Assembly (NCBI GenBank): GCA_965204725.1
Contig: OZ242005.1
Location: 3,936,001 to 4,000,000 of the forward strand
DNA: 64,000 bases
From: Candidatus Latescibacterota bacterium
GTDB lineage: Bacteria; Latescibacterota; UBA2968; UBA8231
Direction of reading: 5' to 3'
Shown here piece by piece: positions 33,101 to 48,904 of the stretch (its first letter is position 1; every line of letters begins with the position of its first letter). Below the pieces are notes generated by a model. That model was not told the origin of the DNA. It ran no database searches and saw nothing but the letters and a program-made list of their open reading frames with translations. A program made the position numbers and the translations under genes.

Positions 33101-33514
33101 GAAGTTTGGGTTGTTCAGCTGATCGGGATCGGTGTGCTGAATGCGGGGCGGCGAAGCACCGAGCGGCATTTGGCGGCGGAACGAATACACCTTTTCGGCT
33201 AGTGATAGCTCGGCCAGTTGTATGTCTGTATCGGGCGCGAATTCAGCGGCGATGTACGCACGCCCCTCGGAACTGGTTGAGCTCAACAGGACCACGCCCC
33301 GCAGACTCTGCACGAGCGACTCCAAGGGCGCGGTAATCTGCGACTCAACGGTGAAAGCAGAAACCCCAGGCCACTCAACGCTCACGGTGAGTTGGGGAGC
33401 GTCTAATGGGCCGCCGATGTCAATAGGTACCAGCCGAAAACAAACCAGCCCCAATGCCAACACCGCCACTCCGGCTACGCCCACGGTCACGGGCCTGTCC
33501 AGCAACTTGTGCAT
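30155..33514 (-). CDS. RND efflux permease subunit
   Basis: GLVVDNAIV, GIAVNNSILL, RLRPIFITTLTT; 12-TM layout with a mid-protein insertion. Confidence 0.92.
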   Translation of the reverse strand: MHKLLDRPVTVGVAGVAVLALGLVCFRLVPIDIGGPLDAPQLTVSVEWPGVSAFTVESQITAPLESLVQSLRGVVLLSSTSSEGRAYIAAEFAPDTDIQLAELSLAEKVYSFRRQMPLGASPPRIQHTDPDQLNNPNFVRLMLLGREDSAVLRQYADEHLRLPLQSVPGVEQVTVRGGSQQHILLEMNHLLAQHWQIDQGVLSQALAAQGIQTRFLGETPSQGTLSSIQLRGNLADLETLKYAPLKRLEHGRPVYTGDVATVRYQPGPPSSLYRINGRNAIAIQFEKTPGSDMIRASQHIREKVAELSQHLPEGFEIIALHDKGAELERDFRFLLRWSAFSIAFIALVLIGVFRRLQTVLLILSSIWLSVLGAVVLFFALGIHLNLATLAGFTIGFGLVVDNAIVIYDYLHRRTQSCGPEGDLRAAVAAGLRDGVHPIVVSNLTTLGAFLPVFFLSRELQGYFEPFVVALGLTLIIALLVALTLIPTFFYQTVARSAIVPVAPTDRIYRLYRTVLSFCVRRKVLFLGLVVWLVGVPLWILPDELGDKRELVPAASADKITTRQQYKAGLATRDTTASSSLFGRTTFLPKSSQEDRPLWERLYDDGADLYNQVWSNPIVAAVKPVLFKVVGGATYFLFRDLSHRLDRQPPRHLLRELSEGFSLIVTLQMPYNSHISRMDKVLRDVEKQLFNFAPYIEGIITQSSGQYGLIQVLIKEEYRASDIPYILYERLAAYESNIGGVGFSVYGKGMDGFGKHLGGSRSVSNQLSIHGFNFGQVGNIAEDIAKQLKQRRSRRIKDIHIDFAYGPSQREIVAQFDHRKTAPLGLGHINLVHEIQDRLAVGTALAHVYMDGRQYAVSVADTGASRMTIRRLSQVALDAHPARIGHVAHIQKRAVTPSIKRENQRYIRTIGFTVLGSYSYSNSILQDIVDHTSLPYGYSLSNPMIYEMDKKERRELGGVVLLAVLLVWMVAAALFESWTQPLLVLIALPLALIGMGAALFLSDAPFNQGSYAALLLLMGIAVNNSILLVYTISTTLKRQPTAPTEAIAQAAFQRLRPIFITTLTTIAGFLPMLLQGEKTDFWYTLALGTSGGLASSSVLLVLVVPLCAIWLATARQNIRC

Positions 33515-33515
33515 G

Positions 33516-36500
33516 TCAGTCTCTCGCCCGAGCGACGACCGAGTAGAGAATGGGGACGGCGATCAGGATCAACAAGGTTGATAGAGAAATGCCGCCGACA
33601 ACCGCCCACGCCAAGGGACGGCGCAACTCGGCGCCACTGCCGCTAGACAAGGCCATGGGCAACAAGCCGCAGACCGTGGTCAAAGTCGTCATGCAGATGG
33701 GGCGCAAGCGCTTTTGTCCGGCTTCCACGATGGCTTGGCCTAGGTCGCCGCTGGCCCGGTAGTGCCGGTGGATAAAATCGGTTTTGACGATGGAATCGTT
33801 CACTACAATTCCCACGAGGACGATACATCCCAACAAGGACATGATATTTAGTGAGTTACCCGTTAGCCACAGGGTACAGACGACCCCAATGGACGCGAGG
33901 GGCACGGCCACGACGATCACAAAAGGAACGACGAGGGACTCAAACTGGGCGGCGAGAATGAAATAGACCAATACGATGGAAATGGAGAGAATGAGGTACA
34001 GGTTTTGATAGTGTCCCTGCAACTCGGTGTGCTGGGTGCCGATCTCAATCCAGTATCCGGCGGGGATGGCTAGCTGGGGCAGGAATTCGTTTAGCCGAGC
34101 CTTGGCTTCGGCAAAGTCGAGGCCCTGTAAGGAGGCCGTGACGGCGACGGTGCGTGCTTGGTTTTCGCGGTGGATGGCTTCGTAGCCCTCGCTCGGTTTG
34201 AGGCGGACCAACTGAGCAAGCGGAACGGCGACAAGGCGGCCTTGCGTTCTGACTGGGTACTGCATGTTGAGGACGCGCCACAAGTCGAGTTCGGCGCGGT
34301 GCTCAGCTCGCACCTTGATGTCTATGCGATCGGCAAAATTGACGAACTGGGTGGGCGTACTGCCTTGTAGTTGGCGGTTGATAAAGTCGGCAAGTTCGGC
34401 GAGGCGGATGCCGTACTGTAGGGCCGCTTCCCGCTGTACCTCGACGTTGAACACTTGCTTGCTGGCCTGCAAATTAGCGCGGGCGTTGGCAAAGCCGGCG
34501 TCCCGCTGCATAAAATCTGTGATCCGCTGGCTCAAATCGGCGAGGACGGTTAGCTGCGGCCCGATAATTTTCAAGTCGAATTGAGTCTGGTGCTGCTGAA
34601 AGAGCTGCTCAAAGGCCGATTCCGGTGGCGACAGGGAGAGGGTTAGGCGACTGAACTCCCCAAAGGCCGCTTCGATCCGCTCGGCGACGTTTGCGCTTTC
34701 GCGGCCCTCGGCAATCTCGATGTCTAGCACCGCTTTGTTCAGTCCGAGTCGGTACTGTCGGTCGAGGATTTCGCATGTGATGCCGATGGATGAGAGCACG
34801 GACGCGACGCCGTCCTCGCGCAGCAGGCGGCGTTCCAGTTTGGTAACTTCCGCCGCAGTGGTCGGCAGATTGGTCCCTGGCGGCAGTTCGGCGCGGAGGA
34901 CTAAATGCTTCCTATCGACGGTGGGTATGAGCTCTCGCTCTAGATCGGTGGCTAGATAGGTACTCAGTGCAAGGAGGACGAACAGTGTGCAGAAGACTTT
35001 CCAGCGATGGCGCAGGGCGCGGACGAGGCCGTACTCGTACAGCAAGAAAAACTTATTGAACAGGTATTGAAAGAGGTCTATGGTGAGGAGGAAAGGGGTG
35101 GCTGCTACGCGCCCAATGCGGTAAAGCCGCCCCGTTGTATTAGGTGCGTTCCAAGACCGAGCCGACAGCATGGGCAGTAGCATGATCGACACGATCAAAG
35201 AGGCTGCCAACGCCAGAGAGATGGTGACGGCCTGCTCGTAAAAGAGTGCCCCAGCGATCCCTTTGACGTACACCAAGGGCATGAAAACCGACATGGTGGT
35301 AAGGGTCGAAGCCGTGATGGCCAAGCCCACCTCGCGGGTGCCGCGGACTGCTGCTTCGCCCGGATCGTGAGACATTTCGCGGTAGCGGTAGATGTTTTCC
35401 AGCACGACGATGGAGTTGTCAACTAAGATGCCGATGCCTAAGGCGAGGCCCCCCAACGACACAACGTTAAAGTGGATGTCGAGAAAGTACATACAGATAA
35501 AGGTGGCAATAATGGAGATCGGTATGGACAGCCCCACGATGAGCGGGTTTTTGAGATCGCGAAGAAAGTAAATGAGAATGACAAAGGCAAAGAGTCCGCC
35601 CAAGTACAGAGATTGTAGGACGTTGTGTATGGATTCGCTGATGAACTCGGCTTGGTCGAAGACCGGCACGACGTCGAAGTCCGCGTACTCTTGCGAAAAG
35701 CGATAGAGGCTGTCATACACTTTTGCGGAGGCTTCCACGGTGTTGGTGCCGGCCTCCTTGAACACATACAGGGTAATAACTTCGTGTCCATTCAAACGGG
35801 TGTAGCCGGTGCGTTCCGCATAGCCTTCTTCGACGCGGGCCACGTCCTGTAAGCGGATTAGTTTGGGCGTTAGCTGCACCGGGGTTTGGCGGATTTGTTG
35901 TACGTCGGTGAACTCGGCTTGTATGCGCAGGGGAAACTGGGCAAAACCGTCGCGGATCGAGCCGCCGAAGTGGGTTATGTTGAACTGCTTGAGACTGGAT
36001 TCCACCTCTGCAAAGCCGACGTTATAGCGCAGGCTTTTCTCGGTGTCGAGATGGATTTGGATCTCGCGGTCTAGCCCGCCAGCGACCTGCACGTAGGCCA
36101 CGCCATCGATCTGCTCTAACCGGCGTTTGACGACGGCCTGCGCCACTTCCTTCAGTTCCATGAGGGCGGCTTGGTGGTCCCAGGTGGAGCGGGGCTGTTC
36201 GACCCGATCGCCGGTGACCACGAGCGTCATAATGGGGGCGGCCGAAGGATCGAAGCGCAAAATGGTAGGGCGGCCGGCCGTTTGCGGCAGGTGGCCTTGA
36301 TCGAGGCTGCTGCGTGCCTTGATGAAGCTGAGGTCCATGTCGCTGCCCCAGTTGAACTCGACCTCGACAAAAGAGATGCCGTCTTGCGAGATGGACTTGA
36401 GCCGCCGTACGCCGCTTATGGTGCTGAGAGATGCTTCGATGGGACGGGTGACATGTTCTTCTACGTCGCGGGCACTTAGGCTGGGTGCGTCCGTGCGGAC

Positions 36501-36638
36501 GATGAGCCGGGGAATGTCGATGTCGGGGAGGAAATCTACGCCTAGCCGAGAGAGAGAGTATAAACCCAAGAGGAGCGCGGCGAGAAAGCAAACCGTAGTG
36601 GCCACGGGTCGATAGACGGCAAAGCGCACGATACGCAT
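33516..36638 (-). CDS. RND efflux permease subunit (second paralogue)
   Basis: Start MRIVRFAVYRPV at 36638; GILVDNSIVVLENI, GIVVNDSI, RLRPICMTTLTT. Confidence 0.93.
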   Translation of the reverse strand: MRIVRFAVYRPVATTVCFLAALLLGLYSLSRLGVDFLPDIDIPRLIVRTDAPSLSARDVEEHVTRPIEASLSTISGVRRLKSISQDGISFVEVEFNWGSDMDLSFIKARSSLDQGHLPQTAGRPTILRFDPSAAPIMTLVVTGDRVEQPRSTWDHQAALMELKEVAQAVVKRRLEQIDGVAYVQVAGGLDREIQIHLDTEKSLRYNVGFAEVESSLKQFNITHFGGSIRDGFAQFPLRIQAEFTDVQQIRQTPVQLTPKLIRLQDVARVEEGYAERTGYTRLNGHEVITLYVFKEAGTNTVEASAKVYDSLYRFSQEYADFDVVPVFDQAEFISESIHNVLQSLYLGGLFAFVILIYFLRDLKNPLIVGLSIPISIIATFICMYFLDIHFNVVSLGGLALGIGILVDNSIVVLENIYRYREMSHDPGEAAVRGTREVGLAITASTLTTMSVFMPLVYVKGIAGALFYEQAVTISLALAASLIVSIMLLPMLSARSWNAPNTTGRLYRIGRVAATPFLLTIDLFQYLFNKFFLLYEYGLVRALRHRWKVFCTLFVLLALSTYLATDLERELIPTVDRKHLVLRAELPPGTNLPTTAAEVTKLERRLLREDGVASVLSSIGITCEILDRQYRLGLNKAVLDIEIAEGRESANVAERIEAAFGEFSRLTLSLSPPESAFEQLFQQHQTQFDLKIIGPQLTVLADLSQRITDFMQRDAGFANARANLQASKQVFNVEVQREAALQYGIRLAELADFINRQLQGSTPTQFVNFADRIDIKVRAEHRAELDLWRVLNMQYPVRTQGRLVAVPLAQLVRLKPSEGYEAIHRENQARTVAVTASLQGLDFAEAKARLNEFLPQLAIPAGYWIEIGTQHTELQGHYQNLYLILSISIVLVYFILAAQFESLVVPFVIVVAVPLASIGVVCTLWLTGNSLNIMSLLGCIVLVGIVVNDSIVKTDFIHRHYRASGDLGQAIVEAGQKRLRPICMTTLTTVCGLLPMALSSGSGAELRRPLAWAVVGGISLSTLLILIAVPILYSVVARARD

Positions 36639-36649
36639 GGCCGGTGCTC

Positions 36650-37816
36650 TCAGCGTTGGACGACCACGACCTTGGCGTCGTGGGCTAGATTGTAGTGCCC
36701 GAATACGATAAGTTCTTCGCCTGCTTCTACCCCTTCGGTAATCTCGATAAAGTCGTCGTTTTCGAGGCCGGTCTTGACGTAGCGCCATTGGGCTAGCCCG
36801 TCTTGGTGGATGAACACTAGCTTGCGGTCGTCGCGGGTTAGGAGCGCGTCGCGCGGTATGAGCAGCCGCTGCTGAAAGGCTTCGACGCCGATTTCGAGCC
36901 GGGCGAACATACCGGGTTTGATGCGCCGGTCGGGGTTGGCCACTTGGATCAAGATGCGGCAAGTTCCGCTTTCACTATCGACTACCGGACTGATGGCTTT
37001 GACCGCACCCACAAACGAGTCGTCGGGATACGCGTGCAACGCGATGGTTGCTTGGGCACCGACGTGTAGCAGGCGCAGTTCGCTTTCGAGGCTGCTGACT
37101 TCGAGCAGCAGCGGGTCGAGTGCCAAAAGCTGCATCAGGGACTGGCCTTGGGTGACCCAAGTGCCGAGGGTTACTTCCACTTCGGTAACAGTGCCGACAA
37201 AAGGTGCTGTAATAACTGCATTTTTGCGGTCGAGGTCGGCCTGCTTCAGGGCGAGTCGAGCGCGGGTTAGGCCCGTAGTGCTGGCGATCCATTCTTTGGG
37301 GGTGCCGCTGGCAAACAGCGATAGAGCTTCTACGTCGTTGATGTTGGTGGTGTCGGCTTTGGTCTTGATGAGGTCGCGTGCTTGGTGCCCGCGGTCCAAT
37401 TGGCCGCTCAACAAGGCTATGGAGGCGTATTCCCGTAGGGCGCGCGTCATCTGGTCCTTTGCCTGTAGGTACGCGATGGCATAGCGTTCCGCGTCTAGCT
37501 CCAAAATAGTATCTCCCTTGCTGACGAAGCGACCTTCCTCGACGTTGAGGCGGCGCACTTGGCCGGCTATTTGGGAGACGATAGCCGTCTCCATTTTGGC
37601 CTTGAAGACGCCTGTCGAGGTGATTTTCTGAACGAGGTCGCGGTGCTGGACGGTGTCTATGGCGACCGGAGTGTTGGGTGGTTCAAGTTCGGGGAGAGTG
37701 TCGAGGGATTCATCGCGGGGATTTTGCGATGGCGCGGAATCGCTGAAAATCGCAAATAATAGGGTGAGTAGCCCAAGCGCGAGAGCGATATATAGGAGTT
37801 TCTTTAGTGTCGTCAT
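36650..37816 (-). CDS. RND periplasmic adaptor (MFP)
   Basis: N-terminal TM, VEEGRFVSKGD, ITAPFVG, IKPGMFA. Confidence 0.92.
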   Translation of the reverse strand: MTTLKKLLYIALALGLLTLLFAIFSDSAPSQNPRDESLDTLPELEPPNTPVAIDTVQHRDLVQKITSTGVFKAKMETAIVSQIAGQVRRLNVEEGRFVSKGDTILELDAERYAIAYLQAKDQMTRALREYASIALLSGQLDRGHQARDLIKTKADTTNINDVEALSLFASGTPKEWIASTTGLTRARLALKQADLDRKNAVITAPFVGTVTEVEVTLGTWVTQGQSLMQLLALDPLLLEVSSLESELRLLHVGAQATIALHAYPDDSFVGAVKAISPVVDSESGTCRILIQVANPDRRIKPGMFARLEIGVEAFQQRLLIPRDALLTRDDRKLVFIHQDGLAQWRYVKTGLENDDFIEITEGVEAGEELIVFGHYNLAHDAKVVVVQR

Positions 37817-38892
37817 TTTGTAAGCTCGCGATCTTTGCCATGGACAAGATCAACGCTCAGTTGCGATCTGCTCAAGGTTTGAGAGTGAGCGGCTAGAACA
37901 TCTAGGGCCTTCCGTTCTTGGATGGCGATGGCGTGAAGCCGGGCCTGAATGCGCGGGATTAGCCTTGGCGTCTCCTTGACTACGCCTTTGAAGCACAGAT
38001 TTTTGGCGACAAACCAACTCTGAGAAATCGACTCGAATTCCCGGCCGAGAGCACTTAGGCCATCAAGGCCGCAGATCCGACTCGCATAGTGGAGAAAGGC
38101 ACCGTGTCCTTCTCGGTTCAGGGCGATCTCGAGGAACAGTTCAGTACATTGATTCAGGCGTGTTTTGAGAAGTTGCTTTTCGCATTCCGTCCATATTTCT
38201 ACGTCCTCGGCGAGCTGCTCAATCCCGGCCACGCCCGGTACGCAATTGGCCCGTATGCTGGTTGCAGACATACTGGCGATATTGCGTTGCAGAATGGCGA
38301 CTACATGGCGCAGACGCACCCTAGGCGGCTCGTCCGGTACGTCTAGCCAGAGCCAGTCAAAGCAGGGCTGGTCCGCGCCAGCAATAGCCCGCGTGTCCCA
38401 ACACGATAGAAAGAGGTCCAAGGGGATGTCTCGCGCCGAAGGCTGCCACGGCGAAGGATCTATCAAATGAACGGTCCCAGCCCCATCATCATACCCGGCG
38501 ACGATGCACTGATGGTCTGAGTGACGCTGGCGCGGATAGAACCCGGCTCCCGCTAGATGGAAGACGTCTAGATTGATGGATACAGGCGCATCTGCATCCA
38601 ATCGTTTTTTGACTTGGTTCCACGCCGCCCTACCATCATCAGAAGTCTCGTCGAATGGCTTAATGCCGAACCGCTGGATCATGGAAAAGAGGGGAGCTGG
38701 GCGACTCCTGATGTTGAACGATTCGCCTCTAAAGTAGAAAAAGTCCCAGTTGTAAAAAGCGGGCAGCGACGGTTCCCATTGGTAGTAGCGCAACAAGCTG
38801 TCGAGCATGACGTAGAGGCAGTTGTAGTGCCGATTAGTGCAGAAGGGAATACCGCTAATGCGCTTTTTCACAACGAACCTGCTTCTTGACAC
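37813..38892 (-). CDS. BtrH-like papain-fold protein (putative acyl-ACP transferase or peptidase)
   Basis: NCLY, PVSINLDVFHL, HSDHQCIVAGYDD, LIDP (Cys-His-Asp pattern); helical C-terminus; near an ACP gene. Confidence 0.75.
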   Translation of the reverse strand: MSRSRFVVKKRISGIPFCTNRHYNCLYVMLDSLLRYYQWEPSLPAFYNWDFFYFRGESFNIRSRPAPLFSMIQRFGIKPFDETSDDGRAAWNQVKKRLDADAPVSINLDVFHLAGAGFYPRQRHSDHQCIVAGYDDGAGTVHLIDPSPWQPSARDIPLDLFLSCWDTRAIAGADQPCFDWLWLDVPDEPPRVRLRHVVAILQRNIASMSATSIRANCVPGVAGIEQLAEDVEIWTECEKQLLKTRLNQCTELFLEIALNREGHGAFLHYASRICGLDGLSALGREFESISQSWFVAKNLCFKGVVKETPRLIPRIQARLHAIAIQERKALDVLAAHSQTLSRSQLSVDLVHGKDRELTK

Positions 38893-39524
38893 AAGGTCAA
38901 CGCGAATATGTGCATGGATGGATTATCCGGCATTACGAGATGCGATAGCAGCGGAGTTTCTTTCAATTCAATTACCTGATGCCAGATTCCTGCTTCAATA
39001 AGCGTCTCCTGCATCTGGTAGTCCTCGCCCGGCGGGGTTATGCCGAAGAGGAATACGTGGGGAGTGAGACTATCGGGAGAGATCAGTTGGCCCATAAATG
39101 CCTCGCGCTCTCCGTACTGAAGCCCTTTGTAATGCGAGGCGTCACTGAGCCCGAGAACTGCTTGAGTGCGGGAACCGTCCGGCGAGTGCAACAGGACGAT
39201 TTCGGCCGTGGCCCGCCAGTCGCATAGCCCCAGAACGTGGAGGGCGCGATAGCGTCCTATTGGCAGTGGGGTTTCTTGCACCTCGCAGGCGATGTTGTCG
39301 TGCGCTCCATCGCTTTTATCTGGAAAAACAAACGATGTGCCGTTGCAACGGACGGTCGCTCCCGACGCCGGGAGATCCTCCGCCCGAAGGATCGTCCCCA
39401 TCCCGTCGAGTCCGTCGGCGGCTGGGTCGCAGGAAGAGGCGATGCCGGCGTTGTTGAAATAAGGTGCTAGGTTCACAGTTACTTGACCATTAGATCGCAT
39501 ATCTGTTTCCGTTTTTCCACTCAA
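38868..39524 (-). CDS. Hypothetical beta-rich (possibly jelly-roll) protein
   Basis: LAPYFNNAGI, FVFPD...DNIAC, LPIGRY..LHVLG, MHIFALTL; overlaps both neighbours. Confidence 0.6.
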   Translation of the reverse strand: MSGKTETDMRSNGQVTVNLAPYFNNAGIASSCDPAADGLDGMGTILRAEDLPASGATVRCNGTSFVFPDKSDGAHDNIACEVQETPLPIGRYRALHVLGLCDWRATAEIVLLHSPDGSRTQAVLGLSDASHYKGLQYGEREAFMGQLISPDSLTPHVFLFGITPPGEDYQMQETLIEAGIWHQVIELKETPLLSHLVMPDNPSMHIFALTLCQEAGSL

Positions 39525-39793
39525 GGCATAGGCGATCGGGCTGCCAACCGCTGTTCTATGTATGAGGTCAAGGTCCGAACTGAATCGAATAGGTCCACCC
39601 GCAGCTCTTCGTCCTCCACTTCAAACCCGAACTCTTCTTCAAGGGCAAAGACGATCTCTAACGCGGCAATGGAATCGGCGTCTAAACCCTCGCCAAATAG
39701 GGACTCGTCATCGGCGATGTCCTCGGGATTGATCTTGAGTTGGAGCCCTTGGACGAGGGCTTGTTTCACTCGTTGAGCTATATCGTCGCGCAT
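39521..39793 (-). CDS. Acyl carrier protein
   Basis: 90 aa, acidic; LFGEGLDADSIAALEIVFALEEEFG with the phosphopantetheine Ser. Confidence 0.9.
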   Translation of the reverse strand: MRDDIAQRVKQALVQGLQLKINPEDIADDESLFGEGLDADSIAALEIVFALEEEFGFEVEDEELRVDLFDSVRTLTSYIEQRLAARSPMP

Positions 39794-41685
39794 GGCTGCG
39801 CCTCTTCCTCGGCAAAGTAGTTGATGACCACCTCGATAGCCCGATGGACATCCGCTTCGTCTGCAATGGATACTGCGGGAAGGCCGAACGTCTGTTCCAA
39901 GCGATTCAGTTTGTCGCGCACCTCGGCCGCGGTCATGGGTCGCGGTTTAATAGAGGTTCGGCCATAGGCCGTGCGAATGTGCTTCGCTTGATTGCTCATG
40001 GCCAACAGGAGCGTCGGTGCTTGGCACAGGGCGCGAATGCCGTTGATGGTGTCTTGGATGTAGTCGTCAGTGTCCACGCTGTTGACCACCAATAGGCAGG
40101 CTTGGGGCTTGACGCCCATCAGGAACGCAAGGGTCGGCAGCGTATGGGTCTGCTGTTCCTCTACGTTATAGGGCACCGTGCCCGATTGAGTGCCGACTAA
40201 AATTAGGTCCGGCCGCTTGCGGTGGTTGATTTCCCGTATCTTGGCGTCGAGATAGAGCGCGTAGTAGTCTAGCGGCATCTCAATGGACGCCGCGTAGCCC
40301 ATGGGGAACGCGCATTCCATGCCAAAGAGGGCCGAGTGGTGTTCGGTGCCGATTTGCCCTATCTGGTAGCCTAGTTCCAGCAGCCGGCGGCGCAGGGCGA
40401 GTTGTAGGGTAAATTTACCTTGCTGTGAGCTGGTGCCTGTGACAGCTAAGACCGGCACATCCACTTGGGGCCAGTACTCGGCCGAACGGAGGGTTTGCCG
40501 TATTTCTTTGGAGGACAACGCTGGATAGTATAGCCGCAGGCCCTTGGCGTCAGCCTGTTCGTACAGACCGGCGTACCGCTCGTGCGGCAGGGCCAAGAGG
40601 CTGAATACATGGACGCCTTGGTCTATGGCGGTTTGAACGGCTTCGCGCAGCAGGTCTCTTTTGCGGATGCGGCTAAGTTCGTCCATATAGCCCAAAACGA
40701 GGGTATCGGCACCCCGTAGGGAGGCGGTCAGGCTGGGGGCAATCGGCAGGCCCGCTGGCGGCAGACCAATGGCCTCGCCCGCGTCTTGGCCAACCAAGCC
40801 CTTGCCGACCAGATCGCCGACCCCGACGATCTCAAAGCCGAGCAGGTCACGCCCGCGCACCAGCGAGTGCATCTCCTTGTTGTAGGGATAGAGGGCGGCT
40901 TTCTGAATGTGGGCGAACGAGTCATCAGCATGGGACAGAGAAGTGGTTTTGGGCACGGTGGTGCGGGCAGCTTCGGGTTGAGCATGCGTGCGGAGGATTT
41001 CGCGCACCTGTGCTAAGCCCACCTTGGGATGAGTTTGGCGGATGAGGGTGAGCAAGCCGGTGATGTGGGGCGCGGCAAAGCTGGTGCCCCTCAGCATGAC
41101 CTCGGGCGGCTCCAGCCAGCACAGCCGCTGGAGATCGCCCCAGGCCACGCACTCGATGGCGGCTCCTTGGCGATAGTAGTAATCGCACAGCCCCTGCAAT
41201 AGCCCCGCGCCCACGCCGATGACTTGGGGTAAGTGGGCCGGGTAGCTTTCGCGGCCTTCTTCGTGATCGGCGGCTACCATTAGAACGCCTTGGTCTGCGG
41301 CCTGTTGGCAGATGCGGGCCAAGGCGTCGCGCTGCGTTACTTCGGTGGTGCCCAAACTCAGGTTGATGATGTCTATACCTTGGTCTAAGGCCCATTCAAT
41401 GGCCTTGACTAGCAAGCGGTTGTCGGCTTGTAGCAATTCATCGAAGATGCGGACGCTGTAAAGATCCGCCTCGGATGCTTTGCGACGGATGATGCCGGCG
41501 CAGGCCGTGCCGTGGCCGGCGCAATCGGCGTGATCGGCACTTTGGCGGATCGCGCCATCTGGCCCGATAGTGAGGGCGACGCCACCGGCTATTGGGCCGA
41601 TTTTGGGGTGATTGGGCACGAGGCCGCTATCGACGATAGCGACTTTGACGCCGTGGCCGGTATGGTTCGCAAGGGAAAAGCTCAT
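39778..41685 (-). CDS. S8 subtilase fused to a DUF1611/TIGR04066-like P-loop domain
   Basis: VAIVDSG, GHGTACAG, GTSFAAP triad; then YPYNKEMH, GTSSQQGKFTLQL, VGTQSG; no signal peptide; ATG 41685. Confidence 0.82.
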   Translation of the reverse strand: MSFSLANHTGHGVKVAIVDSGLVPNHPKIGPIAGGVALTIGPDGAIRQSADHADCAGHGTACAGIIRRKASEADLYSVRIFDELLQADNRLLVKAIEWALDQGIDIINLSLGTTEVTQRDALARICQQAADQGVLMVAADHEEGRESYPAHLPQVIGVGAGLLQGLCDYYYRQGAAIECVAWGDLQRLCWLEPPEVMLRGTSFAAPHITGLLTLIRQTHPKVGLAQVREILRTHAQPEAARTTVPKTTSLSHADDSFAHIQKAALYPYNKEMHSLVRGRDLLGFEIVGVGDLVGKGLVGQDAGEAIGLPPAGLPIAPSLTASLRGADTLVLGYMDELSRIRKRDLLREAVQTAIDQGVHVFSLLALPHERYAGLYEQADAKGLRLYYPALSSKEIRQTLRSAEYWPQVDVPVLAVTGTSSQQGKFTLQLALRRRLLELGYQIGQIGTEHHSALFGMECAFPMGYAASIEMPLDYYALYLDAKIREINHRKRPDLILVGTQSGTVPYNVEEQQTHTLPTLAFLMGVKPQACLLVVNSVDTDDYIQDTINGIRALCQAPTLLLAMSNQAKHIRTAYGRTSIKPRPMTAAEVRDKLNRLEQTFGLPAVSIADEADVHRAIEVVINYFAEEEAQPCATI

Positions 41686-42170
41686 GGGCCTGCCCCCGCG
41701 TCTGTGGCGACTGGGAATCTGGCCGCCTGCCAAGCTGGCCAACCGCCCGTCAGAACATAGACTTCACTGCGGATCGACTCTTTGACGAGCCGCTTGGCTA
41801 GTGTGTAGCTGCTCCGGCAACCGCCTCCTGAACAGTAAGTGATGACTCGGGTGTCAGCCGGGTAAGACGCCAGTGTTTGGCGCAAGCTATCCGCAGAAGC
41901 ATGGGAAGGCAGGTGCAATGCTCTAGGGATATGACCGTCCTCATAAGCGTGCGTTGAGCGTGCGTCCACAAACACTACGTCGCCTTGGTCGAAAGCCTGC
42001 TTGGCCACGGGCACGGCCAGCCGATGAACGCCCTGCATGGCCCCAAGAGTCACATCGGCCTCTAGTTCCGCTATAGAGAACTGCTTGGTATAGAACCAGA
42101 TCACCCATGCGCTGCCAGCCAGCACGACCAGCCAGAGGATCAGCCCCATTCTGAGTAGCAGGCGGCTCAT
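41682..42170 (-). CDS. Membrane-anchored rhodanese-like protein
   Basis: TM helix; FVDARS...GHIPRA, YCSGGGC, LTGGWPAW. Confidence 0.85.
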   Translation of the reverse strand: MSRLLLRMGLILWLVVLAGSAWVIWFYTKQFSIAELEADVTLGAMQGVHRLAVPVAKQAFDQGDVVFVDARSTHAYEDGHIPRALHLPSHASADSLRQTLASYPADTRVITYCSGGGCRSSYTLAKRLVKESIRSEVYVLTGGWPAWQAARFPVATDAGAGP

Positions 42171-42181
42171 GCGGTTTGCTC

Positions 42182-43921
42182 CTAGGCAGCCTCTTGCTGG
42201 TGGTGAACAAACTGGGTGTAATAGCCCGGCTGTTGGCGCAGCACTTCCGGCGGCCCCTGCTCGACCACTTGACCGTTGGACAGGCAAATCACCTCATCCA
42301 CACCTTGTACCGCACTGAGCCGGTGGCTAATTAAGAGAATCGTTTGGTCGCGGTATAGGTGCTGGATGCGCTGGAAGAGGGCGGCCTCGCTTTCGGAGTC
42401 GAGTGCTGCGGTGGCTTCGTCCAAGATAAGCAGGTCCACTGGTTGCAGCAGGGTGCGAGCTAACGCAATGCGCTGGCACTGGCCGCCGGAAAGTTGGACG
42501 CCCTGTTCACCGATTTCCGCCTGCATGTCCAAGCCATTTAGCCCCACTTGCTCGCTCACCCGTTCGACTTCCGCTGGCTCGCACTTGAAGTTCCCGTAGA
42601 GGATGTTGTCTCCTACCGCATCGTTAAGTAGATGAACATGCTGACTGACTAAGCCGATGTGCGCTCTCAATTCGCGCAGGCTTATCTCTTCAAACGGCAC
42701 ACCGTCTATAAGGATGCGGCCTTGATCCGGCTGATAGAACCCACACAACATATTGGCTAGAGTTGTCTTGCCACTGCCGCTCATGCCGACTAAGGCGTAG
42801 CTTTTGCCCTTGACGAGCTTCAGGTTCACACCCTGCAAAATAGATTGGTCTCCGAAGCGGAAGTGAACATCTTGCAGTTCAATGGTGTGCTCATAGACGA
42901 AGGATTTGTGGCCGTTGTGCATCGCCTCTTGAGTGGGCAACTGCATGAATTCCAACACCCGTCGCATAGAGACCAAGCCCCGCACTAAGTCCATGTACAA
43001 ATCGTGTAGTCCGCTAACCGGACCAAACAAACGCGAAGTGTACTGAAGAAAGGCAATGAGAGTTCCGATCGTCATCGCGCCCTGCATTACTTGATAACTG
43101 CCCCAGCCCATGATGAATACTGGAGTTAGAGCCACTAGCCCCGACGAAATCGTGCGCATGGAAGCCGAGTATAGCACGTTGCGCATGGAGAATACGATCA
43201 GATCGTTAAGGGCCGAGCGAAAGCGATGCCTTTCATAGCTGTCGCTGTTGGAAAGTTGTATCAACGGGATGTGACTAAACCGCCCGATAACATAGCTAGA
43301 AAGTTTGGCCCCTTGTTGCTGAATGGATTCGACGACCCTTCTGATCTTGGGCTGAAAATAGAGCAGATTCGCCACAAATAAGGGGAGGACCACGATGGAA
43401 AGCAGAAAAAGGGTGACATCCAGCCAGCACAGGACGGCCACGAGACCTATCAAGGTCAGTACGCTATGTAGAAAACGCATGACACTTGCCGTCAACACCG
43501 ACTGGATTATGCCCACATCGCTGTTGAGGCGGAAGACGATGTCGCCGACGGTATGTCGATGGTGGAATCTGAGCGGCAAGTGCATGAGATGCTGGAACAG
43601 TTCGACGCGGATGTTCCGGACGATGCGGTTGCCGGCCCAAGCGTACAGGTAGTCAGAGGCGAAGGATAGGATCAAACGGGTGATGGTAATACCTAGTAGG
43701 ATGGCGAGGGCAACCAGCAGTGGGTAAAGCTGTTTGGCTGGCACAATTTTATCAATGACGGTTTTTAAAATGTAAGGAGGTGCTAGAGAACCGACTGTGA
43801 TACACAGTACACAGAACAGTACCACAATCCCTTGATACCAATAAGGAATTAGAAAATGCAGGAAAAAGCCGATAGTAAACCGGGCTGTTTTAGTTTTAGG
43901 CGTAGGCATGAGAGATCTCAA
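42182..43921 (-). CDS. ABC exporter (TMD+NBD half transporter, no C39 domain)
   Basis: GMSGSGKTT, LSGGQCQR, LILDEAT, ISHR; alternative start ATG 43909. Confidence 0.93.
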   Translation of the reverse strand: MRSLMPTPKTKTARFTIGFFLHFLIPYWYQGIVVLFCVLCITVGSLAPPYILKTVIDKIVPAKQLYPLLVALAILLGITITRLILSFASDYLYAWAGNRIVRNIRVELFQHLMHLPLRFHHRHTVGDIVFRLNSDVGIIQSVLTASVMRFLHSVLTLIGLVAVLCWLDVTLFLLSIVVLPLFVANLLYFQPKIRRVVESIQQQGAKLSSYVIGRFSHIPLIQLSNSDSYERHRFRSALNDLIVFSMRNVLYSASMRTISSGLVALTPVFIMGWGSYQVMQGAMTIGTLIAFLQYTSRLFGPVSGLHDLYMDLVRGLVSMRRVLEFMQLPTQEAMHNGHKSFVYEHTIELQDVHFRFGDQSILQGVNLKLVKGKSYALVGMSGSGKTTLANMLCGFYQPDQGRILIDGVPFEEISLRELRAHIGLVSQHVHLLNDAVGDNILYGNFKCEPAEVERVSEQVGLNGLDMQAEIGEQGVQLSGGQCQRIALARTLLQPVDLLILDEATAALDSESEAALFQRIQHLYRDQTILLISHRLSAVQGVDEVICLSNGQVVEQGPPEVLRQQPGYYTQFVHHQQEAA

Positions 43922-44607
43922 AGATCGGCTAAGATATGGCGGCCTTTTATAATGTCTAATAGGGACACGCCCTCCAGCGTTTTTAACGGCGAATCGGCGA
44001 AGCTGGCGGTCTTAATCTCAAGAGCCGGTAGGTGAATAGAGATGAGTTTCCAGAAAAAGAGTTGGGTGAATTGTTCTCGACCAACTAATGGGTAGTGGCA
44101 CTGGAGAATGGTCTGGCGTTCGTCAACGAGAAAAATCGCCGGCGTCCGCTCGAAGAGAGCCGCATAATCTTCCTCATAGTCCTGTATGGTTCCCACTTGG
44201 TATTTGAGCTTGAACGCCCGTGAAAATTGAGCAGCAGCCGATGGCACTGAGGACAGCGCATAGATGGGCAGTTGAGCTGGATTTTCTATATGGTCATAGA
44301 CATGTTGTAGAGTCTCTAATACTATTTCCAAGCATGGCTGACAGGAAGAGGGATTGAAGAGGACGACGATACAGCCTTGGGTTCCGGCGAAGTTGGTGTG
44401 CAGTGTGTCTTCTTTGACTTGAAATGGGATCGAGGGAAAAGACTGGCCAACCCATTGGCTAGCTTTGAAGGTGCTGATGGCGTAGGTGCGGTAATTCCGC
44501 ATATCTACGAGATAGATTTTGCCGAACCAAGCTACTACGGTAGTCAGGGCGACGAGTTGTAGTAAGTTGGTGGCGACCAACAGCTTCAGTAGTATTTTAT
44601 GTTGCAT
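43918..44607 (-). CDS. Membrane-anchored thioredoxin-fold protein
   Basis: TM helix, VVLFNPSSCQPC, RTPAIFLVD; probable ATG 44607. Confidence 0.7.
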   Translation of the reverse strand: MQHKILLKLLVATNLLQLVALTTVVAWFGKIYLVDMRNYRTYAISTFKASQWVGQSFPSIPFQVKEDTLHTNFAGTQGCIVVLFNPSSCQPCLEIVLETLQHVYDHIENPAQLPIYALSSVPSAAAQFSRAFKLKYQVGTIQDYEEDYAALFERTPAIFLVDERQTILQCHYPLVGREQFTQLFFWKLISIHLPALEIKTASFADSPLKTLEGVSLLDIIKGRHILADL

Positions 44608-44699
44608 GGTAGCAACCGACGATTTGGGTGGCCCGGTCCCAGTGCTGGGACCGGACCGCTGCATGACCAAAGTATGGGCCTTGAAGTTAGAGGCCGATC

Positions 44700-44897
44700 C
44701 TAGCACTTATCGCTCGTTTTGGTTGCGGGAGGAGTGCAGTCATCCCAAATATCCCAGTAATCTATTACGCACTCGTACTCTTCCGTACAAGCGTCGAAAT
44801 ACACTAACTCCCAGTCGCCCCCGTGAGAGCCCTCACGCTCGTAGGCCTGAACCAAGGCGGTGCGCCTGTTTGGGGTTTTCTTGCTGAGTGTTTTCAT
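44700..44897 (-). CDS. Putative RiPP precursor peptide (65 aa)
   Basis: AAGGAG RBS 7 nt before ATG; MKTLSKKTPNRRTALVQAY-EREGSHGGDWELVYFDACTEEYECVIDYWDIWDDCTPPATKTSDKC. Confidence 0.75.
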   Translation of the reverse strand: MKTLSKKTPNRRTALVQAYEREGSHGGDWELVYFDACTEEYECVIDYWDIWDDCTPPATKTSDKC

Positions 44898-44969
44898 GAG
44901 ATTGCTCCTTAGTAAAGAGTGATGAATGATAGAACCAAGGCCCATAATACTGGTTCGTGATAGGATATC

Positions 44970-46130
44970 TTAGTTTATATCAAAGGACAGCGTATATGTC
45001 TCGACCGTGCCATTGGATATCTCCGCCCTTTCACTCGACGGTTCTCTCCATATATACAGATGCCCCTGCCAAGCGGCGACACTGTTCCAAGGGGCCATGT
45101 TGGACACGAGAGACTCTACCTTCGCTCTATCGAACGTATATGTCTCCATGTTAGACGAAGAGGTAAGATCGTAAAGTATCCACCATTGTGCATCTCTAGC
45201 CACTTGGTGAGAGACAAATAGATACCGATCGTCTATTAGGGTCATGTTTTTGAGCGTGGTCATCTCCAATCCATACATACCCTCAGACGAACCTCGCCCG
45301 ATGCTATGGTAGCGTTCAGGCAAGGAGACGAAGCCCTCTGGGCGCAGACCAAACTGCCGGATGATCTGTCCGGTGTCGGCGTCGATTTCCTTGACGAGGT
45401 AGTCGTTGGGGCCCAAGTAATACAGCCGATGCCGCGCTGGACTGTAGCGCACTTGGGCAAACGCGTTCATGCGGAAGGAGACAAACTGCTGTTCATCGGT
45501 GGACAGGGGGGTGCGATAGAGCGGTTCCCAAGTCGTGGGATCCAAACTCTGTATCTCCATGATCTTCATCGGGTTTGTTTTCAGCAGAAACACTTCGCCC
45601 GCCCGGCCGATTAAAAGCCGACTTCCCTTGAACGAACGCGTCCCATCTATGTACTGCCCTTGACGATCATAACGGACGATCTGGCCGAACGTCTTGTCAA
45701 GGATATATAGCCGGCCGTGTGAGTCTATGGCCATATTTCTAGGGGAACCATACTCGCCAGGGCCGCGTCCTTGCTGGCCAAAGGAGCGAATATAATGTCC
45801 ATCCGTGCGGCTAAACTCATGGGCTTGGTCACCGATGCTATCCGTGATCAGCAAGGTGCCCTCTGGCGAGAAGCTCAGCCAGCGTACACGTCCGATACCC
45901 GGGGAGTCCTCATCAAAGGCGAGTTCGATCTGCTGTTGAAAAATCACGTCGACCTCGCCGACATATTCAACGGGCGTTTGCGAAATGTTGGTCTCATCGA
46001 CTTCGCCGACTTGGTAGGCGGTGTACCACGCTTTGACGCTGTCGCGGATGTCGCTCCACAGTCCGGCGTCGGCTGCCGTGCTACCGAGGGCGACGAGGAA
46101 TGTGCAGATGTGAAAATTTCTGGCGTTCAT
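44970..46130 (-). CDS. Secreted 6-bladed (NHL-like) beta-propeller
   Basis: Signal peptide; FGQQGRGPGEYGSP..MAID..GRLYILD..YDRQG. Confidence 0.82.
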   Translation of the reverse strand: MNARNFHICTFLVALGSTAADAGLWSDIRDSVKAWYTAYQVGEVDETNISQTPVEYVGEVDVIFQQQIELAFDEDSPGIGRVRWLSFSPEGTLLITDSIGDQAHEFSRTDGHYIRSFGQQGRGPGEYGSPRNMAIDSHGRLYILDKTFGQIVRYDRQGQYIDGTRSFKGSRLLIGRAGEVFLLKTNPMKIMEIQSLDPTTWEPLYRTPLSTDEQQFVSFRMNAFAQVRYSPARHRLYYLGPNDYLVKEIDADTGQIIRQFGLRPEGFVSLPERYHSIGRGSSEGMYGLEMTTLKNMTLIDDRYLFVSHQVARDAQWWILYDLTSSSNMETYTFDRAKVESLVSNMAPWNSVAAWQGHLYIWREPSSERAEISNGTVETYTLSFDIN

Positions 46131-46262: not shown

Positions 46263-46823
46263 TCAAGAGCCAGCCTCCGCGCCGGTTGCTGTAGGATACC
46301 CGGACTTCTTCCAAATCGGCCAGCCTCCCTTCAGGATGTAGATTTTCAGCTTGAACTCATCGGTTGATGCGCTGAAGAGGCGAGTGGTTAAGTTGCCGGT
46401 CTCGCAAACGGCTCGCTCGCAATAGACGATGATGCGAGCATCAGACGCTAAGACTTGGCGCAGGTGCTCAACAGGAGCATCATAAGGCAGATGCAACGCA
46501 CTGGGGATATGACCGGATTCGTATGCGGATGTTGAGCGCAAATCCACAAAGAGGGCGTCGCCGCGGTCAAGCTCCTGTTTGGCCTCGGCCGGGTCAATGC
46601 GGCTTGTTATAACTTCTGACGAGGGCTGACCTGAGCAGGACCAGAGGGCATACCCGCTGGCCAATGCGCCCAGCCATAGGAGGAAGCCGGCCTTGGTGAG
46701 GAGCCGCGGCCACGCTCGGCCTTTCTTGCTACGCTTTTTCATGAGCTTGATCCTTAAAGAGGGAGGAGTGATGCAGGCGACGAGGAGCGTGCGGTCGTGA
46801 GAATGAGAATCGGTAGTGTTCAT
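46263..46823 (-). CDS. Second membrane-anchored rhodanese-like protein
   Basis: FVDLRS...GHIPSA, YCERAVC, LKGGWPIW; starts at 46823 or 46742, both with AAGGA. Confidence 0.82.
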   Translation of the reverse strand: MNTTDSHSHDRTLLVACITPPSLRIKLMKKRSKKGRAWPRLLTKAGFLLWLGALASGYALWSCSGQPSSEVITSRIDPAEAKQELDRGDALFVDLRSTSAYESGHIPSALHLPYDAPVEHLRQVLASDARIIVYCERAVCETGNLTTRLFSASTDEFKLKIYILKGGWPIWKKSGYPTATGAEAGS

Positions 46824-46849
46824 AAGGCTCCGGTCCTTTCGTTGTGATA

Positions 46850-46928
46850 AAAATAGCAATCGCCACGGTGCTTGTATATCGGGTGATCACCTGATTTTTG
46901 GCCGGTTCTTATCAGGTAAACACCTGAA
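46850..46928 (-). promoter_or_regulatory. Promoter with tandem 18-bp palindromic boxes (copy 3)
   Basis: ATCGGGTGATCACCTGAT 46878-46895 and ATCAGGTAAACACCTGAA 46911-46928; 46821-46928 duplicates 46128-46235. Confidence 0.85.
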
Positions 46929-47125: not shown

Positions 47126-47776
47126 TTAGAGCGGCTCGTCCTCCCCATCCATCAGCCCTTCTCGGATCGCGTACGCTGTCAACGCGGTCGCACTGTGCAA
47201 GTCGAGCTTATCCATTATGTGCTGGCGATGAGTGCTGATGGTCTTTTCACTCACGTGGAGTGCCTCGGCTATTTGCGCGGTTGTCTTTCCTTCGGCGACG
47301 CATCGCAGCACTATGCGCTCGCGTGCCGTCAGGGGAGAAGGTTTGCTGGGGATAGTAGCGTTATGCGCGTGACTGGGGACGATGGGGTTGGTCAAGTGCG
47401 AACTCACGTACTCGCGGCCGGCTTGGACCTCCCAGAGTGCTTCTACCAACTCGTTGATGAAATTCGTTTTCAGCAGGTACGCCGAGCCGCCTGCCTCGAA
47501 TAGGCCATCTACAAAACGCTTGTCCGCGTGTTCCGACAGCACGACGAACTTAATATGCGGATACGTGGCCCGTATCTGGCGCGTCACCTCGATGCCGCTC
47601 AGGTCGGGTAGTCCTATGTCCACGATCACAATGTCGGGTTGATAGGCGGTGATCAAGTCAATGGCCGTGCGACCATCGGCGGCCTCGCCGATTACCTCAA
47701 TCCCGCTTTCTCGTTCGAGATGCGCGTACATTACTTGGCGCACCATAATATGGTCTTCCACTAGAAAAATCTTCAT
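47126..47776 (-). CDS. NarL/FixJ-family response regulator
   Basis: VEDH, IVDIGLP, YLLK, LTARE...GKTT.QIA..L.VSEKTISTHR. Confidence 0.95.
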   Translation of the reverse strand: MKIFLVEDHIMVRQVMYAHLERESGIEVIGEAADGRTAIDLITAYQPDIVIVDIGLPDLSGIEVTRQIRATYPHIKFVVLSEHADKRFVDGLFEAGGSAYLLKTNFINELVEALWEVQAGREYVSSHLTNPIVPSHAHNATIPSKPSPLTARERIVLRCVAEGKTTAQIAEALHVSEKTISTHRQHIMDKLDLHSATALTAYAIREGLMDGEDEPL

Positions 47777-48846
47777 GAGGAATGGCCCTCCTCTTCAGCC
47801 AAGGTGCTCGGAAGCGTTATCAGACAGCGCGTACCTTTTCCGAGCGTCGATTCGATCGTCAAATGACCACCGATATGGAGCAGATGCTCTTGAATACTGA
47901 ACAGACCGAAGTGATTGCCTTGGATCATCTGGTCCAGATGCGCGACATTAAAGCCCGCGCCCGCGTCTTCTACCACCACCTGTAATTGGTCTCCGTCTCG
48001 ACGCAGGGAAACGGTGGCTTGGTCTGTGTTGGCGTGCCGAGCGACATTGACCAGCAACTCGCGAATGGACCTGTACACTAAGCCGCGTATGTCGTGGCTG
48101 TGTATCTCCCATTTATCCTCGGCTTCCACGCGCACGGTCAACCCGTCCTGGGAATGGACGAGGTCGCCAAGAGCCTCTAGGCCTGGTACGAACCCTATGC
48201 CGTAGAGCACGGGTGAACTGCTATCGAATGTCATGTCCCGGATGATGTGAGCCATCTCGTCAGTTTTTTTCTCCAATGCATCAATCAAGGCTTCGCGCTC
48301 TGTGTCGTCGGCCTGCCGCAGTGCAGCGATATTGACCTTCGACAGTACCAGCATCTGCCCGATTGAATCGTGGAGAGCACTCCCAAGGCTCACCCGCTCG
48401 TGCTCCCTGTCGATTAAGAGCTTGGCCGCCAGCGTCTGCAACTTCTGGATATGTCTCTCCATGCGCCTGTGCTGGCTGATTTTGCGAATAACGCCTTGAT
48501 AGTATATGGGGGTCCCGTCCGCGGCTCGCCAAATCGAGGCCGTTATTAGCGAATCGAAGTGGTGCCCGGTGCGGGTTCTAAACGTCGCGGTAAAGTCGCG
48601 CACGAACTCTTCCCGTTCAATCTCTTCCCGAAACCGCTCGTACTCGTCTAGACTCGCGCAGAGGCTGCGAATGTTCGAGCCGAGCAAGTCGGCGCGTTCG
48701 TAGGCAAACAGGACGTTGGCGGCCTTGTTGGCATCGACGATGGTCCCGTCCTGCTCGGCAATGACGAGAGCGTCGGGCGACGCTTCAAATAAGCCGCGAT
48801 AGAGGGCTGGGTCGCGTCTCAATTTCTTCAGCTTAGGCTTGCACAT
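47773..48846 (-). CDS. Cytoplasmic PAS-HisKA_3 sensor kinase
   Basis: PAS (FEASPDA...DANKAA), ALHDSIGQ, ELLVNVARHA, DAGAGF, HFGL; no TM; ATG 48846. Confidence 0.9.
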   Translation of the reverse strand: MCKPKLKKLRRDPALYRGLFEASPDALVIAEQDGTIVDANKAANVLFAYERADLLGSNIRSLCASLDEYERFREEIEREEFVRDFTATFRTRTGHHFDSLITASIWRAADGTPIYYQGVIRKISQHRRMERHIQKLQTLAAKLLIDREHERVSLGSALHDSIGQMLVLSKVNIAALRQADDTEREALIDALEKKTDEMAHIIRDMTFDSSSPVLYGIGFVPGLEALGDLVHSQDGLTVRVEAEDKWEIHSHDIRGLVYRSIRELLVNVARHANTDQATVSLRRDGDQLQVVVEDAGAGFNVAHLDQMIQGNHFGLFSIQEHLLHIGGHLTIESTLGKGTRCLITLPSTLAEEEGHSS

Positions 48847-48904
48847 GGATCCACCTTTTATGAGTTCGGGTATCCTGCTGCTAGTCCCGCTAGCCGATTC
48901 AAAA

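Follow-up and report, generated by a model that had tools for sequence, protein, structure and literature searches.

The window analysed here is a 64,000-nucleotide stretch of a Candidatus Latescibacterota bacterium genome (contig OZ242005.1, positions 3,936,001 to 4,000,000). It contains a gene whose product joins a peptidase of the S8 (subtilase) family to a DUF1611 domain in one polypeptide, in a cluster with genes for an acyl carrier protein (ACP), a small precursor-like peptide and exporters (Table 1). The open reading frame (ORF) finder gives a longer frame, 39778..41742 on the minus strand, with a TTG start. The ATG at 41685 shares the bases ATGA with the stop codon of the upstream rhodanese gene, and the nearest homologues of the fusion are likewise 635–636 residues long. 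The catalytic triad of the protease is formed, in Asp-His-Ser order, by D19, H58 and S202, and the last 16 nt of the gene overlap the ACP gene. A compact S8 domain with a full triad, joined to a P-loop domain (GTSSQQGKFT) and overlapping the ACP gene, had been reported in a preliminary description of this DNA, and is confirmed here in all particulars. The S8 domain begins at about residue 10, and there is therefore no room for a signal peptide or propeptide.

Scores above the gathering thresholds were obtained for Peptidase_S8 in the N-terminal half and for both PF07755 and PF17396 in the C-terminal half, and by the families' own criteria the protein belongs to both Peptidase S8 and DUF1611. 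In an alignment of 49 full-length sequences, with identity down to 25%, D19 is retained in 48 rows and H58 and S202 in all 49. Residues Gly-417, Thr-418, Gln-422 and Gly-423 of the P-loop are invariant in the same alignment, and Lys-424 is at least 90% conserved. The conservation of triad and P-loop indicates that both halves of the fusion are under selection. Across 34 C-terminal halves the motifs YPYNKEMH, GT..QGKF, TE, P.GY, QSG..P and N..D are invariant, the first of these (residues 266–273) lying just ahead of the DUF1611_N domain.

A word-index search found 523 homologues of the fusion, and among the 120 matches listed all combine S8 with DUF1611, in 602–719 aa. An exhaustive HMMER search with the C-terminal half alone, against representatives of 50% clusters, gave 1286 matches at E ≤ 1e-3, 867 at 1e-10 and 364 at 1e-30. 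The best 150 of the 1286 representatives are mostly 590–680 aa long and are matched at about residues 240–620; a few are stand-alone homologues of the C-terminal half (360–420 aa). By these lengths and match positions, the usual form carries a fused N-terminal domain as large as an S8 domain. The fusion is a large family, with members mostly from Latescibacterota, and not a chance or one-off event. In the searchable literature no functional study was found of an S8-DUF1611 fusion, of TIGR04066 or of its ACP.

For comparison of gene neighbourhoods, 62 related loci were taken from a genome-collection scan. The flanks were at most 8 kb and some loci are cut; genes are simple ORF calls with approximate start codons, and the census of partners used profiles built from these same loci. 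Nearly all are from metagenome-assembled genomes (MAGs) of Latescibacterota, often several per genome, with seven loci on the single chromosome OZ244847.1. One locus each was contributed by a Gemmatimonas MAG, a Palauibacter MAG, a Bacteroidetes MAG, Kryptoniota, Erysipelotrichaceae and Clostridia. In the Kryptoniota MAG (L058:7971-10259) the partner fused to a related S8 domain is not DUF1611 but an ABC transporter (ABC_membrane and ABC_tran; 762 aa); such protease-exporter fusions usually have a C39 protease, where this one is of S8 type. Two further loci lie in the genome of the window itself. One, L063:8014-9282 on the minus strand, is a 422-aa ORF that corresponds to fusion residues 6–420 and ends at the P-loop; the other, L064:8334-10814 on the plus strand, carries a fragment corresponding to residues 437–629, after which come genes for an ACP, an AziU2-like and a BtrH-like protein. 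Both have the appearance of sister clusters that decayed or were rearranged.

The AlphaFold model of the C-terminal half, based on 34 sequences, has a mean predicted local distance difference test score (pLDDT) of 87.9 and a predicted template modeling score of 0.86, and it displays the two-subdomain fold of the solved DUF1611 members. The top Foldseek matches are 2g0t, DgcN (7xrj) and 2obn, with E values from 2.5e-14 to 1.3e-12, so that DgcN is among the three best structures and the DUF1611 fold proposed for this half holds. Superposition with VIA-align gave Z 29.6 and a root mean square deviation (rmsd) of 2.9 over 314 aligned positions for 2g0t (TM0796), Z 28.8 and 2.7 over 311 for 2obn (Ava_3511), and Z 24.6 and 4.0 over 306 for DgcN, at identities of 18–20%. 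A profile of the C-terminal half found 2g0t as its sole match among PDB sequences (E 3.4e-6); the P-loops align, and the loop GT....GK.T is common to both. The three structures have the same whole fold as the C-terminal half, but unlike the fusion they are stand-alone proteins of ~340 aa with neither a protease nor an ACP partner. DgcN is an N-acetyltransferase by its PDB title, and its substrate is free D-glutamate, with acetyl-CoA. The rows that follow the DUF1611 structures, at Z ~15, match the P-loop subdomain and comprise a CobB/CbiA-type amidase, the dethiobiotin synthetase BioD, Soj/MinD and CTP synthase. The next structural matches of the Rossmann subdomain in VIA-align are amine dehydrogenases.

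Among named families, the C-terminal half matches TIGR04066, the model of a 'peptide maturation system protein', with 116 bits (E 1.9e-33; residues 262–625 on model positions 2–360 of 361), below the curated cut-off of 200. The adjacent small ACP that goes with TIGR04066 is present here as the ACP overlapping the 3' end of the fusion; a radical SAM maturase of the TIGR04068 type is not found beside the fusion in the window cluster. The sole radical SAM match among the 36 flanking window proteins scanned is of MoaA type (16628..17677), and a radical SAM partner within the window was rejected.

The protease half aligns in phmmer with classical subtilisins (E ~1e-22). In this alignment the query sequence 'heeg' falls on subtilisin 'gneg', which places Glu-142 at the position of the Asn that we take to be the oxyanion-hole residue N155. 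Glu occupies this position in 7 of the 49 family members, namely the fusion and its closest relatives, and Asn in 32. The substitution argues against assuming that members of this clade would act as fast, ordinary proteases. The top-scoring named S8 model in NCBIfam is QhpE (NF049966; 146.8 bits, E 5.5e-43; residues 14–236 on model positions 1–212 of 219), a subtilisin-like leader peptidase for the gamma subunit of quinohemoprotein amine dehydrogenase. QhpE is likewise a compact S8 enzyme without signal peptide or propeptide; unlike it, the protease described here is fused to a second domain and has Glu in place of the oxyanion Asn. The earlier comparison with QhpE-like small S8 enzymes is thus borne out as to the nearest named model but not as to membership, the score lying below the curated cut-off of 165. 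Genes resembling qhpD (radical SAM) and qhpC (precursor) were not seen among the window proteins scanned. By these cut-offs and operon contexts, the fusion is an equivalog of neither QhpE nor TIGR04066. The cyanobactin proteases PatA/PatG also combine a subtilase with an accessory domain in a pathway for peptides made on the ribosome and modified after translation (RiPPs). That domain is a different one from DUF1611, and the match of the fusion to TIGR03895 is weak (38.3 bits against a cut-off of 421), far too low for membership.

The VQAY sequence noted previously lies at residues 16–19 of a 65-aa peptide encoded upstream of the fusion, with AAGGAG as a good Shine-Dalgarno sequence 8 nt ahead of its ATG. 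This is a real precursor-like peptide, with the end of its leader, AY, conserved. Small ORFs at the same position in the closest loci have in common the leader M-K-x-L-x-K-K-x-x-x-R-R-x-x-x-(V/I)-x-A-Y, and their cores diverge, being acidic and aromatic with two to four Cys. With a profile made from nine precursors, 12 ORFs were recovered at about E ≤ 1e-3, together with weaker look-alikes that have the LAY motif in more distant clades. A strict pattern found 18 precursor peptides in 16 of the 62 loci; it demanded [AT]Y, so the AY is partly there by construction. In a 15-row alignment Tyr-19 is invariant and Ala-18 is at least 90% conserved. In L017:1945-2199, L018:1720-1956 and L020:1961-2212 the same (T/A)Y leader end precedes a long, Gly/Ala-rich hydrophobic core ending in Cys. 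With a small precursor gene, a conserved leader and a variable core beside a protease and an exporter, the locus has the composition of a RiPP cluster.

The preliminary description had further proposed that cleavage after VQAY would expose an N-terminal Glu for acylation. In the window peptide Glu does follow AY directly. Across the 18 pattern matches and the window peptide together, this holds for only 6 of the 19 precursors, the others having Ser, Asn, Trp, Ala, Val, His, Thr or Asp. An exposed N-terminal Glu is therefore not a family feature, and was discarded as a general rule. Glu is found at position +3 after AY in 15 of the 19.

The fusion and the precursor were also submitted together to complex prediction, which gave a score of 0.39 (runs 0.35, 0.50 and 0.39) against 0.00 for the best control. 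The runs have at least 83% of their contacts in common, and the pLDDT of the partner is at least 51. Of 157 solved complexes 116 attain the mark for such predictions, as do 2 of 215 mismatched pairs; at scores of 0.60 or under only 18 of the 157 attain it, and so do both of these mismatches, and the result is weak support. It bears on the very improbable alternative that the cluster makes no modified peptide, the small ORF being an ordinary secreted Cys-rich protein or signal and the fusion acting on some other substrate. In favour of that alternative, the strict pattern recognises the small-ORF family in no more than the 16 loci. Against that alternative stand the complex prediction, the conserved leader with its variable core across clades, the repeated pairing of precursor and propeller genes, and the conserved exporters. 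The pairing is seen at L010:1471-5005, where two precursors lie amid three DUF5128-type propeller ORFs, and in the window at 44700..46130. The pattern hints at one matching secreted propeller per peptide, with a possible function in immunity, as a chaperone or as a receptor.

The phosphopantetheine attachment residue of the ACP, Ser-41 in the sequence DADS, is kept in 50 of 51 related ACPs, and the lone ACP without it comes from an ORF truncated where its locus ends. Among the 54 loci with a long fusion ORF, the ACP gene is directly downstream in 38 and elsewhere in the locus in 6; of the 10 with none, 3 are cut at the gene and 2 hold different fusions. Counting only loci with a full-length fusion, 43 of 51 have an ACP. 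The Bacteroidetes and Firmicutes loci L053, L061 and L062 also hold one, and the association of fusion and ACP is kept across Latescibacterota, Bacteroidetes and Firmicutes.

Two places after the ACP gene, the window encodes a BtrH-like protein, a candidate carrier-dependent acyltransferase whose Cys-25 is kept in 13 of 14 sequences. Its BtrH_N and DUF4872 domains, together with an ACP that has its Ser, correspond to the BtrH/BtrI type of system. In butirosin biosynthesis BtrI is the ACP and BtrH the ACP-dependent acyltransferase. The window cluster has this logic of a carrier protein and a BtrH-type transferase in common with butirosin, but the presumed acceptor would here be a ribosomal peptide instead of an aminoglycoside, and no ATP-grasp loader of the BtrJ type is found among the cluster proteins. 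The model for DarH, from dialkylresorcinol/aryl-polyene clusters, gives no more than 24 of 300. A BtrH-like protein or a member of a related family of ~340 aa (X340) is found in 36 of the 51 loci; hhalign relates X340 to the BtrH-like set with a probability of 89% (E 2e-6, 222 columns). In two more of the 51, L044 and L046, the ACP is followed by a protein with PP-binding and Condensation domains whose N-terminal part weakly matches the BtrH-like profiles, which brings the total to 38. This protein is a piece of thiotemplate machinery within a cluster of ribosomal-peptide type. GNAT is the sole acyltransferase candidate in 3 of the 51. Because a separate BtrH-like protein is present in 38 of 51 loci, DUF1611 need not be the peptide-acylating enzyme. 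The earlier view of DUF1611 as a peptide acylator therefore retains its structural basis, the fold of DgcN, and is weakened by these partners.

Between the ACP and BtrH-like genes lies a gene for a protein to which no Pfam or NCBIfam family could be assigned. A profile of ten homologues matched AziU2/Azi28, from the aziridine-forming pair of azinomycin biosynthesis, in the PDB over nearly the full length (E 1.3e-17), which makes the protein a clear homologue. Foldseek with the model gave 8gs1/7wuw at E 1e-9, but the model is poor (pLDDT 58.8), and the link to AziU2 rests on the profile match. An Atlas search with the 218-aa protein found hypothetical clusters only. AziU3/U2 is described as an aziridine synthase in function, working through sulfate displacement (PMC12559475). 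The window has a single AziU2-like copy in place of a U2/U3 pair, and no sulfotransferase was seen nearby. AziU2-like and BtrH-like genes co-occur in 10 loci, and also in the remnant cluster of the window's genome.

A conventional enzyme for loading the ACP was not found. Neither the window cluster nor the portions of 17 related loci scanned with Pfam gave an AMP-binding or ATP-grasp match, and the P-loop of DUF1611 is therefore the only candidate loader seen there. The sole RimK-type match in the window is a Mur-ligase-type protein (14528..16609), far from the cluster. Across the loci the protease, DUF1611 and the phosphopantetheine-bearing ACP are constant, and the thioester-to-amine transferase varies between BtrH-like, GNAT and condensation-domain forms. 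This constant core, the variable transferase and the lack of a conventional loader suggest that the fusion combines a leader peptidase with an enzyme acting on ACP thioesters.

The DUF1611 half might instead be a nucleotide-binding regulatory or docking domain, used in leader recognition or control of the protease, with the ACP serving the BtrH-like protein only. Its Walker A motif is non-classical, with Phe instead of Ser/Thr after GK, and the fold class includes many non-enzymatic nucleoside triphosphatases (such as MinD, ParA and MeaB). We consider this improbable, because the ACP remains adjacent in loci that lack a BtrH-like gene and because many polar residues beyond the P-loop are invariant (YPYNKEMH, TE, QSG, N..D).

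According to another alternative, the S8 domain cuts after VQAY and the fused DUF1611 domain itself acylates the new N terminus from acyl-ACP or acyl-CoA, in the manner of DgcN. The close structural match to DgcN speaks for it, as do the fusion of the domains, which suggests that one hands its product to the other, the Glu directly after AY in the window peptide, and the 10 of 51 loci that have no other acyltransferase candidate. The scarcity of that Glu among the other precursors and the 41 of 51 loci with a BtrH-like, X340, GNAT or C-domain partner make it unlikely. In a third scheme, which we regard as improbable too, DUF1611 would be a ligase that spends ATP to fix the peptide to the ACP in thioester linkage, by way of a carboxylate such as Glu +3 or the C terminus, after which the BtrH-like, condensation or GNAT protein would resolve the thioester with an amine to give a macrolactam or branched product. 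The conserved P-loop Lys, the frequent Glu at +3, the BtrH-like-T-Condensation protein after the ACP in L044 and L046, and the resemblance to P-loop enzymes that activate carboxylates with ATP (CobB/CbiA-type, BioD and CTP synthase; Z 13–15) would all suit such a ligase. However, P-loop proteins like MinD and ParA also reach Z ~14 without being ligases, the title of DgcN names an acetyltransferase and not a ligase, and we know of no precedent.

In general terms, the fusion is probably a RiPP-type maturase that cuts its substrate and takes part in carrier-dependent acylation. For the more specific proposal, a two-part RiPP maturation enzyme whose DUF1611 domain has a role centred on the ACP, the chances appear about even on the present comparisons. 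Within this ACP-centred scheme DUF1611 may possibly serve as the loader of the ACP, which we suggest tentatively; that it is a direct transferase appears doubtful. From the architecture, fold, motifs and neighbourhood we infer the following catalytic steps, cleavage site and cargo. The intracellular S8 half would cut the conserved leader off the 65-aa precursor, possibly up to the conserved Glu at +3, and the DUF1611 domain would act on the phosphopantetheine thioester of the downstream ACP. In the favoured version this domain would load an acyl or aminoacyl unit onto the ACP, drawing on a CoA thioester, as in DgcN, or using ATP by means of the P-loop. The AziU2-like enzyme may first tailor the ACP-borne unit in this clade, and the BtrH-like protein would then pass it on from the ACP to an amine group on the shortened peptide. 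Export of the product would be by the ABC and RND systems, and outside the cell the membrane-anchored thioredoxin-like and rhodanese proteins may handle its four cysteines. Carried furthest, the ACP-centred proposal would make DUF1611 a new carrier-protein-charging enzyme, a P-loop ligase or transacylase that works without an adenylation domain and is coupled to leader cleavage. In its boldest form the cut peptide would be tethered to the ACP as a thioester through the conserved Glu, and BtrH-like, condensation-domain or GNAT partners could cyclise or cap it. This is a long shot; if true, a ribosomal pathway would borrow thiotemplate logic without a nonribosomal peptide synthetase.

Several observations weigh against the ACP-centred proposal. 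The N-acetyltransferase title of DgcN would fit a direct transferase better than a loader, and both halves score under the cut-offs of their nearest named models. Glu-142 at the oxyanion position could weaken the protease. An ACP was not seen in 8 of the 51 loci; the flanks fetched for a clade of five (L028, L032, L033, L034 and L036) contain none. Nor did the window proteins scanned include a phosphopantetheinyl transferase. A separate acyltransferase (BtrH-like, X340, GNAT or C-domain) was not seen in 10 of the 51 loci, including that from Bacteroidetes (L053), and in the parts scanned of the Firmicutes loci L061 and L062, which stand outside the 51-locus count, there was no BtrH-like or GNAT match. 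In such loci DUF1611 would have to do more than load the ACP.

The remaining genes of the cluster are listed in Table 1. An iterated search placed the CQPC protein in one family with the AhpC/TSA-Redoxin proteins that occupy that position in L012 and L022. The HlyD-type adaptor and the RND pumps are conserved downstream of the fusion in the closest loci. The peptide cluster region, at 42–48 kb, has a GC content of 0.51–0.55, below the window mean. Elsewhere in the window a DDE transposase fragment (21961..22443, plus strand) lies in a stretch with a GC content of 0.52, between flanks of ~0.60.

Table 1. Features of the S8-DUF1611 cluster in the window, and the condensation-domain protein of two related loci.
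Feature	Coordinates	Strand	Remarks
Two-component regulator pair	47126..49020	-	
Rhodanese	46263..46859	-	
Secreted six-bladed beta-propeller, DUF5128-like	44970..46130	-	Paired with precursor genes in related loci
Precursor peptide gene	44700..44897	-	65 aa; leader MKTLSKKTPNRRTALVQAY, then acidic aromatic core with four Cys
Membrane-anchored thioredoxin-fold protein, CQPC	43918..44706	-	
ABC exporter	42182..43921	-	ABC_membrane and ABC_tran
Membrane-anchored rhodanese	41682..42287	-	Translationally coupled to the fusion gene
S8-DUF1611 fusion gene	39778..41685	-	635 aa; Pfam, NCBIfam, homologues, alignment
Peptidase_S8 domain	40972..41658	-	Residues 10–238; Pfam PF00082, 94.3 bits (gathering threshold 21.8)
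Glu142 codon	41260..41262	-	Position aligned with Asn of subtilisin GNEG
DUF1611_N (Rossmann-like) domain	40531..40797	-	Residues 297–385; 28.5 bits (gathering threshold 22.6)
DUF1611 P-loop domain	39856..40467	-	Residues 407–610; 47.1 bits (gathering threshold 25)
P-loop GTSSQQGKFT	40408..40437	-	Residues 417–426 of the fusion
Acyl carrier protein	39521..39793	-	90 aa; PP-binding E 2.6e-10
AziU2-like protein	38868..39524	-	218 aa
BtrH-like protein, candidate carrier-dependent acyltransferase	37813..38892	-	BtrH_N 46.6 bits and DUF4872 34.5 bits, both above cut-offs
HlyD-type adaptor	36650..37816	-	
Two RND pump genes	33516..36962 and 30155..33514	-	
BtrH-like-T-Condensation protein	L044:10204-12918, L046:10204-12927		~905 aa; PP-binding and Condensation domains

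A split form of this arrangement is found in the SacP23 cluster of Paenibacillus polymyxa, which is described as having a radical SAM protein (TIGR04068), a TIGR04066 protein, an ACP (TIGR04069) and a separate subtilase (PMC10731318). For the TIGR04066 protein that paper offers no more than a guessed role ('immunity'). As described there, that cluster and the one in the window both place a DUF1611-like protein by a small ACP, a subtilase, an ABC transporter and a Cys-rich peptide; unlike in SacP23, the protease and DUF1611 form one polypeptide here, and BtrH-like and AziU2-like genes are added. A radical SAM gene lies beside the fusion in the Bacteroidetes and Firmicutes loci L053, L061 and L062, which ties the fusion family to the split Firmicutes arrangement. 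For the flm/ohk clusters, the main text (PMC12703449) mentions no acyl carrier, peptidase, DUF1611 or BtrH, and peptides with DD[IV]LF are absent from the window and from the 62 loci.

Carrier proteins are rarely used in ribosomal peptide pathways. What appears to be new here is a putative RiPP leader protease that is fused to, and would work with, a carrier-protein module. Dozens of the fetched loci, mostly from the uncultured phylum Latescibacterota, share the combination of protease, DUF1611, ACP and BtrH-type transferase. Once the function of these proteins is solved, a large branch of DUF1611 would have a role, and so would the TIGR04066/TIGR04069 genes in the Cys-rich radical SAM peptide clusters of Firmicutes. 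Peptide engineering would also gain a compact leader protease whose leader motif is defined, and a new route for loading carrier proteins may come to light.

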